From positions 1-31,423 of IMG/VR virus record IMGVR_UViG_3300049141_000034: a stretch of 31,423 bases of DNA; one strand, given 5' to 3'. Origin of the DNA: a virus (lineage: Duplodnaviria; Caudoviricetes). This document shows, piece by piece, positions 5,200 to 30,850 of the stretch; position 1 is the first letter of the stretch; the number at the start of each line of letters is the position of its first letter. A program made the position numbers and the translations under genes. The notes under the pieces were generated by a model that did not search any database, was not told where the DNA came from, and worked only from the letters and a program-made list of their open reading frames with translations.

Positions 5200-6165
5200 A
5201 TGGTGGCAACGCCCCCCATCAAGCTCTCGGACGTCGACTCGACGTTCCTGCCGCCCACCCTGGTGGGCCCCATCTTCGAGAAGTCTGTCGAGGCCAGCGC
5301 GGTGATGTCGCTGGCAAAGCGGGTGCCGCTGTCGATGACCGCGCAGACCTCGGTGCCGGTGCCGCTGGACGTGCCGACCGCCGACTGGGTGTCCGAGGGC
5401 GGACGCAAGCCGATCTCGACTGGCGGCGTGGACGTCAAGCACATGAGCGGCAAGAAGATCGCTGTGCTCATCCCTGTGTCCATGGAGGTCGCCCAGTCCA
5501 ACGCGGCCGGCCTGTGGTCGCAGCTCCAGCGGGACCTCCCGACCGCCTTCGCCCGGGCCTTCGACCACGCGGCGATCCACGGCCTGACGATGAAGGGCGC
5601 CACCGGGCCCTTCGCGGACTTCCTCGGAGACACCTCCAAGGAGGTCGTCCTCGGCACCACCTCGCAGGCCAACGGCGGCATCTGGACCGACTTCGTCAAC
5701 GGCATGGAACTGCTGATCGACGACGACTGGGACTTTACCGGCACCGTCGCCGACAACCGCGTCAAGCCCAAGCTGCTCAAGGCCACCAGCACGACCGGTG
5801 AGCCGCTGTTCGTGGACACCCGATCCTCGGCAGCCACCAGCCCCGGCCAGGCGCTGCAGGGTGAGCTGCTCGGCGAGCCGCTGGCCTACTCGCGGAGCGT
5901 GTCGGGCAAGCAGCGCCGCCAGTCCACCTCCGTCGACTCGGGCCTGCGTGCGATCGGCGGCGACTGGTCCCAGGCTGCGTTCGGTGTCGGCATGGACATC
6001 ACGGTGAAGATCTCCCGCGACGCGACCTACATCGACGAGGACGGCGGCGTCCACTCGGCGTTCCAGGAGAACCTGGTGCTTCTCCTGGCGGAGGCCTACT
6101 ACGGCTTCGTCCTCGGCGACGAGGAGGCGTTCGTCAGGTACGTGGCGACCGCGGGAGCGTCGTGA
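5200..6165 (+). CDS. Major capsid protein (HK97 fold)
   Basis: 321 aa; ADWVSEG..KP, KKIAVLIPVS.E, GGDWSQ and FQENLV.L.AEA.YGF motifs. Confidence 0.93.
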   Translation: MVATPPIKLSDVDSTFLPPTLVGPIFEKSVEASAVMSLAKRVPLSMTAQTSVPVPLDVPTADWVSEGGRKPISTGGVDVKHMSGKKIAVLIPVSMEVAQSNAAGLWSQLQRDLPTAFARAFDHAAIHGLTMKGATGPFADFLGDTSKEVVLGTTSQANGGIWTDFVNGMELLIDDDWDFTGTVADNRVKPKLLKATSTTGEPLFVDTRSSAATSPGQALQGELLGEPLAYSRSVSGKQRRQSTSVDSGLRAIGGDWSQAAFGVGMDITVKISRDATYIDEDGGVHSAFQENLVLLLAEAYYGFVLGDEEAFVRYVATAGAS

Positions 6166-7196
6166 GCAAGCCACCGGCGGGTGGGGGCAGCCGGGCGACG
6201 GGGCTTCGGATCGTCGCCCGGCTGCACGCAGCCCCGCCCCGGCACAACGCCGGCGCCGAGTGGATGGCCTGGAGCATGTTCCGGGCCCTGGTGGACCGCG
6301 GCCATGACGTGTCGGTGTGGCTGTCCAGGTACTCGGGCGATCGCGACCCGTATGAGCTGCACGGCGTGCGGGTCATCCCGCTGGCGGCCCGCCTGGACTT
6401 CGCCTCACAGATCAAGTCCGCCGACGTGCTGGTGTCGCATCTGGAGAACGTGCCGTCCGTGGCGTCCCTGGCGCGCGGCTACGGCAAGCCGTTCGTGGCG
6501 ATCTGCCACAACACCTTCACGCCGACGTTCCGAAACATCGCCTCCGGCGGGTGCAGGCTCGCCGTGTACAACTCGCAGTGGATGGCCCGCGAGGCGGAGT
6601 TGTACTTCGCGGAGTACCCGAAGAGCGTGCGCCCGGCGGACAGTCTGATCGTGCGGCCCCCGGTGTTCGCCAGGGACTACGCGACGAGGCGGCGCGGCTC
6701 CCACATCACGCTCATCAACTGCAACGAGGCAAAGGGCGGTCAGCTGTTCCGCGAGCTGGCCAAGCGCATGCCGGACGCGAAGTTCCTCGCGGTGAAGGGC
6801 TCCTACGGGGAACAGGCCGACTACACCGGCCTGGACAACGTGGAGGTCGTCGAGCATGTCCCCGGCGACCAGATGCGGGAGCGGGTGTACGCCCGCACCA
6901 GGGTGCTGCTGATGCCGTCCAGCTACGAAAGCTGGGGCCGGGCGGGCGTGGAGGCCATGGCCTCCGGGATCCCCGTGGTCGCGCATCCCACGCCGGGCCT
7001 GTGCGAGTCCCTCGGCGAGGCAGGCATTTTCCTGGATCGGAGCGATCCGCAGGCGTGGGTGACGGTGCTCGGCAAGCTCGCCGAGGCGGACGAGTACCGG
7101 CTGGCGTCGAAGCGCGCGAAGGCACGGTCTACGGAACTGAACCCGACCGCCGAACTGGCCGCCTGGTGTGACGCCGTGGAGGCCCTGCGCACGTAG
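6162..7196 (+). CDS. Glycosyltransferase (GT-B fold, GT4-like)
   Basis: N-terminal HNAGAE...L..RGHDV and C-terminal LMPSSYESWGRAGVEAMASGIPVV (EX7E) signature; GTG overlaps the capsid TGA. Confidence 0.9.
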   Translation: MSKPPAGGGSRATGLRIVARLHAAPPRHNAGAEWMAWSMFRALVDRGHDVSVWLSRYSGDRDPYELHGVRVIPLAARLDFASQIKSADVLVSHLENVPSVASLARGYGKPFVAICHNTFTPTFRNIASGGCRLAVYNSQWMAREAELYFAEYPKSVRPADSLIVRPPVFARDYATRRRGSHITLINCNEAKGGQLFRELAKRMPDAKFLAVKGSYGEQADYTGLDNVEVVEHVPGDQMRERVYARTRVLLMPSSYESWGRAGVEAMASGIPVVAHPTPGLCESLGEAGIFLDRSDPQAWVTVLGKLAEADEYRLASKRAKARSTELNPTAELAAWCDAVEALRT

Positions 7197-23179: not shown

Positions 23180-23276
23180 GTGTCCCCCACAGGTTGAACG
23201 TCCAAGCACCGTAGAGCACACGCGCCCACCGGGTGACCATCCGTCACCGAGCCGTGACACGACGGGGGACGCCCAG

Positions 23277-23304
23277 GCTCTCGATAACATGCCATATCGC
23301 GGGC
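23277..23304. other. Candidate tyrosine-recombinase core site
   Basis: GCTCTCGATA-ACATGCCA-TATCGCGGGC: 8/10 inverted arms around an asymmetric 8-bp spacer. Confidence 0.35.
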
Positions 23305-23305
23305 G

Positions 23306-23593
23306 TTATTTGGGCTGATTGTCCGACTCTCCGTCGGCCCGCTTGCCGGTGGTCCGCCCCTCGGCGATCTGCTGAGCGCGCGCCCTGCTGATGCCGAGTT
23401 CGGCGGCAACCTGCGCATGACTGAGCCCGTCGTCGCGCATCTCCTGGACGGCGCTATGCCGGATCTCGCGCAGCCATTTCTGAAGCTCGGGGATCGCCTG
23501 CAAGGCGGTGCTGACGTCCTTCGCTCGACGGGTCGCGTCACCTTGCTCGGCGAGGTGCTTCAGGTTCTCGAAGGGGCTCGGCGGTGTGGTCAT
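23306..23593 (-). CDS. Small HTH regulator (sigma-70 region 4-like), probably leaderless
   Basis: GLSHAQVAAELGISRARAQQI HTH; -10-like TACACT 6 nt upstream of ATG on the minus strand. Confidence 0.75.
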   Translation of the reverse strand: MTTPPSPFENLKHLAEQGDATRRAKDVSTALQAIPELQKWLREIRHSAVQEMRDDGLSHAQVAAELGISRARAQQIAEGRTTGKRADGESDNQPK

Positions 23594-23614
23594 GGAATCA
23601 GTGTAGGGGGAGGG

Positions 23615-23644
23615 TTGACATGTCGTAAGGGGTCCCCTTACATT
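23615..23644 (+). promoter_or_regulatory. Housekeeping-sigma promoter with overlapping palindromic operator
   Basis: TTGACA-N18-TACATT; palindrome GTAAGGGG-T-CCCCTTAC at 23625-23641. Confidence 0.75.
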
Positions 23645-23650
23645 GGATGT

Positions 23651-23894
23651 GTCGGGGGAACCCGGCAACAACTCCACAGAGAGCGGACACTCCGAGGAGC
23701 AGCTACGGAGGGGAACGGGCCGGGGCAACCCGGTACATGACCTCCAACCGAAAACCGCGTCAGGCGGAATAAGGGCTGCGAACGCGTTGGGCTTAGACCT
23801 ATCGACGGGGTCAGACCCCGGCTGTAAATGGCGAAGTACCCGAGGCCTTCCCGCGAGGATGGACGGACGACTCGGTACCCCCGCTCTCTGTGGA
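23651..23894 (+). ncRNA. Candidate structured ncRNA or long structured leader
   Basis: Perfect 14-bp closing stem 23673-23686/23881-23894; several hairpins including GNRA loops; directly downstream of the promoter; no credible ORF. Confidence 0.55.
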
Positions 23895-23923
23895 ACCACG
23901 ACAAGGCCAGCAGAGGGGGCGAG

Positions 23924-24316
23924 ATGTCGACCACGTACACGGTGAAGTGCCGCCGGTGCAACGGGACCGGCGTCTGGACCGGATGGACCCCTGCCGGGCG
24001 CGGTGGTGAGTGCTTCGGCTGCGACGGGACCGGACTCAAGGTCATCACCCGCTACACGGCAGCCGAGAAGGCCGCGATCCAGGAGCGCACGCAGCGCCGC
24101 TCTCGCTCCCTGAAGCTCATCAGCGCCCGCGCCCGCGAACTGGGCACTGCCGCCAAGGACCCCGAGCTGATGTGGGACGCGGAGTACGGCTTCGCGGCTC
24201 TCGAGAGCAGGGAGCCGGAGCGGTTCGGCGCGATGCTCTCTGCCCTCGAATCTGGCCGCCTCGACGACGTCATCCGCGCGCTGGCTGACTACTACCGCAA
24301 CCCCAAGGGGAGCTGA
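23924..24316 (+). CDS. Protein with DnaJ-type zinc-finger motifs
   Basis: GAGGGGG RBS; CRRCNGTG...CFGCDGTG. Confidence 0.7.
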   Translation: MSTTYTVKCRRCNGTGVWTGWTPAGRGGECFGCDGTGLKVITRYTAAEKAAIQERTQRRSRSLKLISARARELGTAAKDPELMWDAEYGFAALESREPERFGAMLSALESGRLDDVIRALADYYRNPKGS

Positions 24317-24318
24317 CC

Positions 24319-24540
24319 ATGGCCGCCAAGAAGCGCACCCTCCGCCGCGACAGCCTCAAGTTCGGCTACGTCACCAGCGACGGCCGCTACGAGATCACAC
24401 CCCTCTACGGCTTGAGTATCCGAGGTGGATCCGTTAGCCGCCCCACCGGGTGGCGCCTGAAGGACCGCCAGGGCGAGTACGAGAACCGCTACGAACTGTC
24501 CCTCTCCCGCATTCGCGAGATCCTCAAGGAGCGCCCGTGA
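24319..24540 (+). CDS. Hypothetical protein
   Basis: GGGGAG RBS; operon continuity. Confidence 0.6.
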   Translation: MAAKKRTLRRDSLKFGYVTSDGRYEITPLYGLSIRGGSVSRPTGWRLKDRQGEYENRYELSLSRIREILKERP

Positions 24541-24749
24541 CCAGCAAGCGCCGCTACTACGTCGACTTCGAGCACGGCTCCCTGCCGATGATCCTGCCCG
24601 TCGAACCCGGCGACGAGGACTACGAGTACGCCGAAACCACCCTCGCTGCCGCAAAGAAGAAGGCCATCAAAAGCATGCGGGACAAGATCGGCAGTCTGCG
24701 CGAGGCCATCAAGGACGTGCGTCAGTCCCGCGCCGCGGACTTCAACTGA
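24537..24749 (+). CDS. Hypothetical protein
   Basis: AAGGAG RBS, GTGA overlap; ends before a hairpin. Confidence 0.6.
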   Translation: MTSKRRYYVDFEHGSLPMILPVEPGDEDYEYAETTLAAAKKKAIKSMRDKIGSLREAIKDVRQSRAADFN

Positions 24750-24762
24750 TGGCTCCCAAAGT

Positions 24763-24801
24763 GGCGATGCCCCGCCTGAGGAAAGCAGGCGGGGCATCGC
24801 C
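24763..24801 (+). terminator. Terminator-like hairpin
   Basis: GGCGATGCCCCGCCTG / CAGGCGGGGCATCGCC, 16-bp perfect stem. Confidence 0.7.
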
Positions 24802-24837
24802 CGTACCGTACCTGAACGAACAGCCATGGAGGACATC

Positions 24838-24993
24838 GTGAACCAGCCCCAGAACGACCTGCCCGACTGCGACCGCTGCGACGACACCCAGCTGGACCAC
24901 GACGCCTACATTCCCCACGAGACCGAGCACGGTACCGCCTACCGGCACGCGCCCTGCCGCGACTGCCAGCCCGAGGTGGAGGAGTCGGCGTGA
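24838..24993 (+). CDS. Small CxxC-CxxC zinc-binding protein (51 aa)
   Basis: GGAGG RBS and GTG; CDRC...CRDC; its stop overlaps the recombinase start (GTGA). Confidence 0.6.
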   Translation: MNQPQNDLPDCDRCDDTQLDHDAYIPHETEHGTAYRHAPCRDCQPEVEESA

Positions 24994-26009
24994 CCGACCT
25001 CGTCCCCCACCAGCCGGACGCCACCCCCGCCGTCTACGACGCTGCGACGCTCGCCGTCCTCGCCGCCATGGAAGAGGCAGCCGAGAAGCACCTCGACGCC
25101 ATCCGCCCCCACAACACGAAGCGCGGCTACGCCAACGACTGGGCACTGTGGGAGGAGTTCCACGACTGGCTCGCTGAGCGGACAGGCAGCCGCCTGCCGT
25201 CGACCGCCGTCACCCGGGGAACGCTCGTCGGGTTCGTCGTCTGGCTCGACACCATCAAGCTCGCCGCGCCCAACAGCATCGACCGCAGGATCACCGGCGT
25301 CACCGTCACCGCTCGCAACGAACACGGCGCTGAAGTCCCCAAGGCCGCCACCGTCGCAGCACGACAAGCCCTCAAGCCACTGAAGAACGACCCCGAACGC
25401 ATGGCGCGCGGGCGAGGCAAGGCAGCAGCCGTCACCCCCGAACAGCTCCGCCAGATGAACGCCGCCGTCGCCGACGGACTCACCGGACTCCGCGACCGCG
25501 CCCTCTGGCTCATGGCCTTCGCCATTGCCGGACGCTCCGCCGAAGTCGCCGCCCTGCGTGCCGACACCATCGTCCACGTCAGCCAGGGCCTCGAAGTCCA
25601 CGTCCCTGCCGTCAAGGGGAGGCCGCCCCGGGACGTCGTCGTTGGCTACGGCCGCAACCCCGACACCTGCCCCGTCCGCGCCTGGCTCACCTGGCGCGCC
25701 GCCGCAGGCATCACCAGCGGACCCGCCTTCCTACCCATCACCGTCCACGGCCGCCTCGGCGACCACGCCCTCTCCCCGGAAGCCGTCCGCGAGATCATCG
25801 CCCGCAACGCCGAACGCGCCGGACTCTCCGTCCGCCTCACCGGGCACAGCATGCGGGCCGGCTTCATCACGACCTCTCGCCGGGCTGGGAAGCGTGAGGA
25901 GAAGATCCGCGAACAGTCCGGCCACGCCGAGAACAGCCCAGCCTTCTGGGGCTACATCCGCGAAGCCGACAAGTGGACCGACGCCGCCAGCGAGGACATC
26001 GGCCTGTAG
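24990..26009 (+). CDS. Cre-like tyrosine recombinase (second recombinase)
   Basis: NTKRGY..DW N-domain; RDRAL...GRSAEV, VKG, GHSMRAG, SGH and GY catalytic set; no evident arm-binding domain. Confidence 0.88.
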   Translation: MTDLVPHQPDATPAVYDAATLAVLAAMEEAAEKHLDAIRPHNTKRGYANDWALWEEFHDWLAERTGSRLPSTAVTRGTLVGFVVWLDTIKLAAPNSIDRRITGVTVTARNEHGAEVPKAATVAARQALKPLKNDPERMARGRGKAAAVTPEQLRQMNAAVADGLTGLRDRALWLMAFAIAGRSAEVAALRADTIVHVSQGLEVHVPAVKGRPPRDVVVGYGRNPDTCPVRAWLTWRAAAGITSGPAFLPITVHGRLGDHALSPEAVREIIARNAERAGLSVRLTGHSMRAGFITTSRRAGKREEKIREQSGHAENSPAFWGYIREADKWTDAASEDIGL

Positions 26010-29003: not shown

Positions 29004-29040
29004 TGAAGTGGCCACTCCGCAGGTGCGGGCGGCCACTTCA
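29004..29040. terminator. Bidirectional terminator between the replacement gene end and the integrase
   Basis: TGAAGTGGCC...GGCCACTTCA stem. Confidence 0.7.
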
Positions 29041-30390
29041 CTCATGATCATTCAGTGCTGGGGAGGATCTGGGGAGATCCATTTCAGGAGACTCCGCTTC
29101 GGGCCCGGCGAGCTCGCCGGCCATGAAGCGGCCGATCGCCGAACGCCCCCTTGCCCCGGACTTCGGCATGAAGTGCACGTAAGTCCGCAGCGTGAACGCC
29201 GGATCGTGATGCCCGAGCCAGGCAGCCAACTGCGTAATGCTCTCACCCTCGGCCAGGACGACGCTAGCGAAGGTGTGGCGCAGCACATGGAAGCCGAACT
29301 GACGCGGCATGTCCCACTCCTCCTTGCGCCACGGCTTCGCTCCACGCTTCGGCTCCACCCAGGTAACCTCGGGCGGCTCGATCAGGCCGACGTCCCTCAG
29401 CGCGGGCTTCCACTGCCGGTCGTTGAAGGTGTCGCGAGTGACCGCGCCGCCGTTCACGCCATTGGTGAACTGAGTGGTGACCAGCAGGCGCACCGTCTTC
29501 GGTGGCCTTTCCTGCCAGGACAGGTTGGGCCGGTCCGGATCTACCCAGGGCAATGTCACTTCGACAGTGGCGAATCGGTTGGCGTGCTCCTTGATGGCCT
29601 CGGCGAGTTCGGGCGCACAGGGCGCGACGCGCTCCTTGTTGCCCTTCGGCGGGCCGAACGCGAACCGGCCCTTCACTTTGATGATCTGCCGGACCACGTT
29701 GATGTCCTCGCCGTCGACATCGTCCGGAGAGAAGGCGAACGCCTCGCCTTGCCGCAGGCCGGCGCCGACCGCCAGGTCAGCCAGAATCCGGTACCGCTCC
29801 GGCAGCGCCAGCCGCACGGCCCGCACCGTCTCCTGACTCCAGGCGAGTGCCTTCGACTTGGGCAGGCGCGGGGCCTTCAGGTCGTCATCCCGGAAAGGGT
29901 TGGCCGCGATGCGCTTCGCCTTGTGGGCGGCCTGCAGGATGGTCGAGAAGTGGGCGCGGGTGACAACGAGGGTTCCGACGTCGATGTCCTGCTCGGCGCG
30001 CGTCTGCCAGGCACGGATCTCCTCGAAGCCGATCCGGTTCAATGGCAGCGATCCGACGTGAGGCAGGATGTGGTTGGAGACCTTCGACCACACGGACGCG
30101 CGCGTTGTCGGAGGGTACCGGGTAGTCGGCCACCAGTACTGGTGGACGTAGTCGGAGAGGCTGATCGAGCCGTCGCGCGGGTCATACCACTCGCCCCGGC
30201 CGCTGTCGGTCTGGGCGTCGGCGAGCCACTTCTTTGCGAGAGTCAGCTTGCCGTCGGGGAATGAGCGGGATCGCACGCCGGGGATGCCGGTGACCTTGTA
30301 CCGCTTCCCCTGCCCGTGCCGTTCGGTGGGGATGTTGCGCTTGCCGTCCGGACCCTTCTTGTACCAGCGGTCCTCGATGTATCCCGGCAC
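29038..30390 (-). CDS. int: Tyrosine integrase
   Basis: GTG start; YIEDRW arm-binding N-terminus; AGLRQGEA, PKG, FHVLRHTFAS, LGH and TLRTYVH motifs. Confidence 0.95.
   Translation of the reverse strand: MPGYIEDRWYKKGPDGKRNIPTERHGQGKRYKVTGIPGVRSRSFPDGKLTLAKKWLADAQTDSGRGEWYDPRDGSISLSDYVHQYWWPTTRYPPTTRASVWSKVSNHILPHVGSLPLNRIGFEEIRAWQTRAEQDIDVGTLVVTRAHFSTILQAAHKAKRIAANPFRDDDLKAPRLPKSKALAWSQETVRAVRLALPERYRILADLAVGAGLRQGEAFAFSPDDVDGEDINVVRQIIKVKGRFAFGPPKGNKERVAPCAPELAEAIKEHANRFATVEVTLPWVDPDRPNLSWQERPPKTVRLLVTTQFTNGVNGGAVTRDTFNDRQWKPALRDVGLIEPPEVTWVEPKRGAKPWRKEEWDMPRQFGFHVLRHTFASVVLAEGESITQLAAWLGHHDPAFTLRTYVHFMPKSGARGRSAIGRFMAGELAGPEAESPEMDLPRSSPALNDHE
29058..29076 (+). repeat. Integrase arm-type site (right arm), inside the int 3' end
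   Basis: CTGGGGAGGATCTGGGGAG. Confidence 0.65.
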
Positions 30391-30406
30391 GGCCGCCCCC
30401 GTTCGT

Positions 30407-30850
30407 TCAGATGTGGCTTGGCTCGGGAGGACTATTGTCGATGATCTCCCCCTCGTAGAGCTGGAACCACTGGCCACCGGCAAGGAAGTCGCGGGTGGTT
30501 GGGTTCATGGCGGCGGCGAAGCCGGCCGTGTCCAAAGTGGGGTCGATGTAGACGGTGACGAGGCCCTTGCGTTCTTCGACGCAGGCGCCGTCGGGCTCCT
30601 TCATCTCGAGCAGGTACTCGATCCGAAGGGGGCGATCCGGAGTATCGCGGGAGACGATCTCGTCCTTCCACAACTGGAACCAATGGGCGGAGGACATGAG
30701 TCGCTCGATCTCGATGTTCAGCTGCCGCACCACGTCGGCGAGCGGCTGGGTCTTGTCCAGGCGGACCCGTATCTGTCCGCGGTCTTCGTCGATCTTCGCA
30801 AGTCTGCCCGGCGGCAGGTCAGTAACGGCTTCGTAGGTGACGTCCAGCAT
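30407..30850 (-). CDS. Hypothetical protein with internal duplication, between repressor and int
   Basis: Two halves ending WFQLWKDEI and WFQLYEGEI. Confidence 0.7.
   Translation of the reverse strand: MLDVTYEAVTDLPPGRLAKIDEDRGQIRVRLDKTQPLADVVRQLNIEIERLMSSAHWFQLWKDEIVSRDTPDRPLRIEYLLEMKEPDGACVEERKGLVTVYIDPTLDTAGFAAAMNPTTRDFLAGGQWFQLYEGEIIDNSPPEPSHI

Follow-up and report, generated by a model that had tools for sequence, protein, structure and literature searches.

Genomic setting of the RNA locus

Is the intricately folded stretch of about 220 bases at the head of a small phage operon a leader of the gene behind it, a ribozyme, or an RNA gene in its own right? The window, i.e. the whole stretch of DNA analysed here (31,423 nt), is a linear IMG/VR entry (record IMGVR_UViG_3300049141_000034) which is about 50% complete, carries phage genes for terminase, portal, capsid, tail, endolysin, holin and integrase, and has its relatives from Streptomyces. 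The lysis genes and the integrase lie on either side of the RNA locus, which is surrounded by the following features:

23306..23593, minus strand: small HTH DNA-binding gene (PHROG 686 HTH, E 2.4e-9), divergent from the RNA
23615..23644, plus strand: sigma-70-type promoter TTGACA-N18-TACATT, single site in 23200-25100 (0.1 expected)
23625..23641, no strand: 17-bp palindrome in the spacer between the -35 and -10 boxes, retained in those HTH loci that were read
23924..24316, plus strand: first operon gene, 130 aa, two CxxC motifs
24319..24749, plus strand: two small genes, 73 and 70 aa, then a 14-bp hairpin at 24765-24799
24990..26009, plus strand: Cre-like tyrosine recombinase gene (PF00589, E 9e-8), a neighbour without link to the RNA

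The promoter, which the initial annotation had placed before the RNA, is thus the lone sigma-70-like site of this region. Homologues of the HTH gene adjoin the same promoter and palindrome; the palindrome is likely to be an operator, and the HTH gene product is a likely repressor of the RNA operon. HTH gene, promoter and palindrome together form a conserved cargo slot (window 23306-23644; loci L002-L009, L011-L013 and L019), the first gene of which is a different one in nearly every locus read. The head strand of the RNA cassette described below is present in four of 13 HTH-gene loci and in none of the remaining nine, eight of which were read and all have a protein gene directly after the promoter (the count leaves out the weak matches L010 and L014-L017 and takes the G703 copies once). 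The RNA is an optional cargo of this slot. In genome G703 the same HTH-RNA operon occurs in three contigs (L201-L203; C1 8507063, C2 838202 and C4 58539); these copies show no difference over at least 6 kb and, in the two larger contigs, lie near the ends.

A module of the RNA with the three small proteins, next to a Cre-like recombinase, had also been envisaged. The comparison of neighbourhoods did not uphold it, as the neighbours in the window are without a constant link to the RNA: the gene downstream differs among members, the recombinase occurs without the RNA in L002, L003 and L006, and the RNA without the recombinase in the DNA fetched for L011 and L019. The first operon protein has no relative among the viral contigs searched, and a distant relative of its gene sits after an RNA of another class (class III, see below) in L030 (E 3e-6); this gene is not an obligate partner of the RNA.

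A structured non-coding RNA

The window RNA has no match among the Rfam families; in the scan which had been proposed for it, the whole window gave no match at gathering scores and one chance match (E 6.4) around the RNA. GC content by codon position is 0.63/0.64/0.64 in the RNA region versus 0.83-0.89 at the third positions of the neighbour genes, hence the third-position GC bias expected of a protein-coding region is absent. The minimum free energy of the region is -117.5 kcal/mol (z -3.28), and none of 200 shuffles was as stable. Homologues with compensatory changes, lack of codon bias and lack of an Rfam match give good support to the first claim made for this locus, that a conserved non-coding structured RNA heads an accessory operon. 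Its parts, in the nomenclature used here, are:

23651..23666, plus strand: 5' hairpin just past the predicted transcription start, near-identical in L004, L011 and L019
23670..23686, plus strand: cassette head and 5' strand of P1, pairing from 23673
23692..23696, plus strand: 5' strand of P2, pairs with 23871-23875 (24 of 25 cells paired in five members, two-sided changes, probability 0.99)
23697..23784, plus strand: class I core, with a conserved ACG at its 3' end
23699-23703/23775-23779, plus strand: P3, closes a three-way junction
23707-23711/23741-23745, plus strand: P4, leads into P5
23719-23734, plus strand: P5, GNRA-capped
23755-23767, plus strand: P6, preceded by a 2-bp P3b and an A-rich internal loop
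23785..23870, plus strand: variable 3' domain, not alignable between members, with a hairpin at 23806-23820
23881..23894, plus strand: 3' strand of P1, next start codon 30 nt on

Several helices of the initial annotation recur in this model. The 5' hairpin with its GGAA loop and the perfect 14-bp closing stem (23673-23686/23881-23894) were found where it had drawn them. The window has no other perfect inverted repeat of at least 14 bp with a loop of 50-300 nt, and of its 100 Markov resamples 93 contain none. The GCCGGG-GCAA-CCCGGT and CCGC-GTCAG-GCGG hairpins reach pair probabilities of 0.89-1.0, the CGGGGT/ACCCCG hairpin 0.81-1.0. The CTCCG/CGGAG and GTACCCGAG/CTCGGTAC helices found no support: their probability is about 0, and P2 and P4, which covary, occupy their strands. 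A related contig (run X2) carries G23844A, which would weaken a helix of the earlier proposal. Pseudoknot or alternative pairings of the types CGCGT/ACGCG, CCAAC/GTTGG and TAAG/CTTA involve strands that are held by covarying helices and likewise lack support; ViennaRNA scores no pseudoknots, and its zero for these pairings is therefore no test of them. A pairing of the CCAAC/GTTGG type was compared with 500 shuffles in each of the eight class I members; it is only marginally better than these in the window (26/500) and in L027 (9/500), and no better in the other six (55-481/500).

One closing stem with three classes of interior

Using the head motif and a protein frequently encoded downstream as search keys, we found 18 stem-closed cassettes (that of the window and 17 more), distributed over 16 loci of actinomycete phages, prophages or metagenomes. 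In each of the 18 a near-identical head strand is paired with a tail, and the interiors are of three classes. The searches yielded 2 of 2, L011, two cassettes in 401 genomes, 6 of 28 viral loci and one of 81 metagenome loci, and further L157, L158, L161, L164 and L180; some of these records repeat. Class I has eight members including the window, class II six (151-156 nt) and class III four (209-284 nt). In class II, 11 of 48 predicted pairs show two-sided changes, and two invariant complementary loops are present, without covariation. The members of class III were aligned and folded singly, and this is the least secure of the groupings. The split into classes is based on local alignment scores, on the search with a class I model and on differing predicted folds; the alignment scores cannot prove the interiors to be non-homologous, because distant class I members also score at background.

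The interiors appear in exchange for each other within the same frame. Locus L004 shares promoter, hairpin and stem arms with the window but has a different interior, and a soil contig (independent run X2, record 9) matches the window up to position 23685, from where on its interior is of class III. Furthermore, cassettes occur in tandem, III followed by II in L019 and I followed by II in L011, each unit with a stem of its own. All 18 cassettes are oriented in the sense of the downstream gene, the start codon of which is found 27-33 nt past the last stem in 16 out of 16 loci (L030 has in addition a candidate start at 21 nt).

Blastn of the window RNA against GenBank phages and plasmids returned chance matches only, and a blastn search of 301 genomes at E 0.05 gave noise. 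In metagenomes 80 of 81 head matches were without a closing arm, and a scan for head plus tail at variable gap returned 39 loci, among them four known cassette loci and no new one. The comparison with sequencing runs covered three of 23. Contigs of one RNA sequencing run cover the RNA; since they also span the divergent HTH gene they may derive from DNA.

Likeness of the stem to ribosomal leader-trailer helices

In 17 of 17 cassettes the 5' strand of the first eight P1 pairs is the same, two of them having a single A-C mismatch (L161 has a variant head), whereas the later pairs covary; such a pattern suggests a recognition that is aware of sequence. By our own count P1 comprises 13-21 pairs in 16 cassettes and eight in L180, and in class II it runs on into the next helix. 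The cassette head reads AACTCCACAG, that of L161 AACTGAACAGTGGA. In the rRNA operon L150 the leader strands of 16S and 23S rRNA start with AACTCAACAG and AACTGCACAG and pair with the respective trailers. The cassettes thus resemble the rrn operons of Streptomyces in that complementary flanks surround a large folded RNA, with a head near-identical to the start of the 16S/23S leader strands, and in that units stand in tandem with a helix for each, as for 16S and 23S. They differ in being encoded by phages or mobile elements, in enclosing non-ribosomal RNAs of 150-280 nt and in their shorter stem.

The excerpts of PMC10250234 and PMC8632103 describe leader-trailer helices as targets of RNase III which are needed for rRNA folding in E. 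coli. For S. coelicolor PMC4681348 goes no further than suggesting RNase III cleavage at a single site of the 16S trailer; the partner cut was not seen, and the site has no assigned place within the helix compared here. The boxA core of rrn operons (consensus as in the excerpt of PMC13753749) is absent before the cassette heads, where 2-4 of 12 letters match the L150 leader (17 cassettes tested, L052 left out). Of the rRNA signal, then, the cassettes retain the helix but lack the part that loads Nus factors.

The head is also found without a closing arm (twice in L028, and in L166, L168 and L169) and can therefore work single-stranded. In genome G002 a boxA resembling that of rrn operons, together with the leader-strand motif, stands in leaders other than those of rRNA (L169 about 390-415, L166 about 723, L168 about 641). 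Its letters agree with the host rRNA leader in 12 of 12 positions in L169 and in 10 of 12 in L166; these sites are possibly Nus-loading sites borrowed by mobile elements. In L028 (minus strand, 2795 and 1514; G032:C205), an integrative-looking element, both heads lack a tail; each stands just before a ribosome-binding site and is preceded by a GC-rich hairpin whose loop is GCAAAG or CCAAAG.

Fold and covariation of class I

In the class I fold P1 and P2 are followed by a GAG linker and by P3, and the two arms of the three-way junction are formed by P4 leading into P5 and by P3b, the A-rich internal loop and P6. A GNRA tetraloop caps the P5 arm and an ACG follows P3 in eight out of eight members; the A-rich internal loop we take to be of the UAA/GAN type. 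A helix P7 in the variable 3' domain was tried and has probability 0 in the window; it is at best tentative.

In the covariation check on homologues, which had been recommended at the outset, two-sided changes were found in the core helices. In five members placed by hand, with offsets of our own choice, 203 of 206 cells pair. In a MAFFT alignment of four members 6 of 17 pairs show two-sided changes, a number reached by none of 500 shuffles, and slid controls pair in 24-42%; as the members are few and related, such shuffle counts are not to be read as probabilities. With all eight members 15 of 17 core pairs show two-sided changes, in an alignment that was fitted to the model and therefore leans towards it. 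A model built from four members returned the held-out L161, L164 and L011 as the top three non-training matches in 67 kb (E about 1e-3) and L158 with E 0.11, these members having been picked by eye ahead of the test. The same model had no match in the rRNA operon L150 and none wholly inside a class II or III interior; one match (E 0.68) overlaps the head of L030. A covariance-model search of 151 genomes found none, a result that carries no weight as the known G703 copies were missed as well; a pattern search for the class I core gave three matches, all by chance.

Comparison with known RNAs

To our knowledge GOLLD, ROOL and raiA each represent a single family and not several folds exchanged within one carrier stem. 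The cassettes share with them that they are compact multi-junction RNAs with closing stems, likely tertiary contacts and unknown function, as set out in the excerpts of PMC12968392 and PMC12286853, but none of the respective Rfam models matches a cassette. A loose resemblance to the raiA-motif RNA had been noted at the outset. Size, a closing P1 and the stretch UUAGAC in the window would fit a diverged raiA, and a P1 formed by the 5' and 3' ends is indeed present, as judged by the pairing of the two ends, which is a generic feature. However, with RF03072 (gathering score 101.3 bits) no candidate appeared in the record at E up to 10. The linker UUAGA(C/A)GUAA between PK1 and P6, given as conserved in the excerpt of PMC12968392, occurs in none of the eight class I members (0/5 and 0/3), the window holding only its first six letters, and a raiA-like 20-mer had no match in viral contigs. 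Finally, no conserved pseudoknot like PK1 or PK2 was seen when the main candidate pairing was followed through the eight members, the strands being part of covarying nested helices. With model, linker and pseudoknot all failing, descent from raiA is hardly credible.

Among the ribozyme and riboswitch models of Rfam 15 nothing came near the gathering score over the cassettes scanned (L180 left out). Resemblances to the SAM, glycine, lysine, cobalamin and c-di-GMP riboswitches, to SRP, RNase P and group II introns were considered and dropped, as the stretches concerned are not kept in homologues and have no support from Rfam. In the prophage-like region G007:C9 (L027) an operon headed by a class I RNA contains three type II hammerheads (2023-2086, 2271-2336 and 2773-2836), each located after a stop codon and just before the ribosome-binding site of the next gene. 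The cassettes have in common with such hammerheads between phage genes (RF02276) this operon and a position just upstream of ribosome-binding sites, but are 2.5-4 times longer and without the hammerhead core.

Operons that open with structured RNA units followed directly by a small gene are also known from the RNA arrays of type III toxin-antitoxin systems, from put of phage HK022 and from the Bacillus EAR element. In contrast to these, the tandem units in our loci are different folds rather than repeats of one, and the downstream gene is exchangeable. The Rfam antitoxin and antiterminator models gave no match to the cassettes, and no Pfam toxin family was found for the first operon gene of the window or for the common partner protein. 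EAR is named also in the excerpt of PMC8632103.

In the literature searched, which is thin in subscription journals, these RNAs are not described. PMC11109978 names several Streptomyces motifs in its main text, but these are different ones. PMC10690425 reports RNA candidates of 29-151 nt from IMG/VR; six of our contig identifiers are absent from the portion of its files searched, and a fragment of these RNAs could be listed there. The window RNA is thus, judged by comparison, a conserved RNA of an apparently undescribed cassette system.

Possible function and alternative explanations

What the comparison of loci establishes is a structure with compensatory changes, a shared stem, three classes of interior, tandem arrays and the likeness of the stem to rRNA helices. 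The explanation we favour, which in our estimate has about an even chance of being correct, is that the cassettes are non-coding RNA genes whose products are predicted to be excised by the host RNase III at the rRNA-like stem and to work in trans, where they would probably bind proteins as decoys or scaffolds. The optional slot and the separate stems of the tandem units point to products rather than to a regulatory leader. In such a scheme the divergent HTH protein would leave its operator and transcription start from the promoter; head and tail would pair co-transcriptionally into the stem; and RNase III would cut it, freeing a folded RNA of about 190 bases; the transcript of the first gene would thereby acquire a new 5' end a short distance upstream of its ribosome-binding site. 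Contacts of GNRA and A-rich loops may then bring about tertiary folding, and the freed RNA would bind proteins in trans as a decoy or scaffold for the phage.

Unlikely, but the most serious of the alternatives, is a leader that acts in cis, be it an antiterminator like nut, put or EAR, a sensor of a ligand or protein, or a structure stabilising the mRNA. The cassette is always first in its operon, and the constant distance from stem to start codon, together with the heads that occur alone after hairpins and in leaders of mobile elements (there with the boxA of L169 and L166), keeps such a reading alive. An alternative pairing of the 3' strand of P4 is also possible in the window and in L027; however, it is missing in six of eight members, as boxA is missing from the cassettes. 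Moreover, the same promoter drives genes without any RNA in nine of 13 loci, three folds and tandem pairs precede the same gene family, and the ribosome-binding site lies outside the stem. We consider it improbable that the operon transcript is processed by the RNA itself as a ribozyme of a new class, through self-cleavage or another catalytic activity. The three hammerheads of the G007 operon, each just before a ribosome-binding site, keep this idea alive, and the GNRA loops of all eight class I members and their conserved A-rich junctions are in line with it, features that are found in large ribozymes as well. Yet no ribozyme model matches any cassette scanned, hammerhead-like patterns were seen downstream in one of the 11 loci checked, and self-cleavage has no need for a shared terminal stem that is constrained in sequence.

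Similarly improbable is an RNA-protein module with the small helical protein that carries the signature GG-x-A-T/S-x-x-Q-K (L019 3406-3726 and relatives, 68 of them), either as a system like type III toxin-antitoxin or with this protein binding the shared stem. This family is strongly associated with the cassettes: in 11 of 16 loci, spread over the three classes, its gene comes immediately after the cassette or array, and eight of nine loci found by the protein profile have a cassette; five of these eight were already in the query alignment, which leaves three of four among the new ones. But the gene is absent from the window's record, itself about half complete, and from the DNA fetched for L004, L152, L030 and L202, and in L159 it is present without the RNA. 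The protein has a confident structure model (pLDDT 84), but only a weak hint to DUF3072, no fold match in the PDB at E 0.001 or better and Atlas matches under 0.9. Very improbable, finally, is an explanation at the DNA level, in which the cassette would be a mobile unit bounded by inverted repeats or a site at which the neighbouring tyrosine recombinase acts. Inverted arms do flank exchangeable interiors, and the swap point lies at the end of the 5' arm. Against this stand the uniform orientation of all 18 cassettes relative to the downstream gene, interiors which covary with G-U pairs and GNRA loops, and a recombinase unlinked to the RNA; the swapping would be accounted for by homologous exchange between the shared arms.

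If the cassettes are trans-acting RNA genes, as we favour, a role in the conflict between phage and host or between phages can be suggested from their position in an optional slot that otherwise holds small uncharacterised genes; this is the least certain part of our interpretation. A more far-reaching version is conceivable but on balance doubtful: that actinomycete phages and phage-plasmids carry at least three unrelated, tertiary-folded RNA machines within one stem mimicking an rRNA helix, swap and stack them by recombination at the shared arms, and have them released by the rRNA processing of the host as trans-acting anti-defence decoys, scaffolds or ribozymes.

Implications

These results add three candidate classes of large phage RNA, the class of the window with clear covariation. 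In the literature searched there is no report of an architecture in which one presumed processing stem holds interchangeable RNA folds and such units are stacked in arrays. The novelty rests on this architecture and on the failed searches, not on a function. That the outer stem is a carrier common to three classes of RNA was missed by the initial annotation. If the stem is a carrier processed by the host, phages would borrow the route of rRNA maturation in order to deploy RNA cargo in the way they deploy small accessory proteins. Natural variants of the same promoter slot hold no RNA, one class or two, and hence offer a direct handle on the role of large structured phage RNAs; the head motif can serve as a key in the search for further classes.

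Two other features of this prophage may be mentioned. It possesses two tyrosine recombinases, the Cre-like one in the accessory region (24990-26009), the gene of which is cut short in L003, and the integrase (29038-30483). In addition, a gene with a glycosyltransferase-like stretch (6162-7196) is located between the genes for the capsid and the head-tail adaptor (PHROG 2170).
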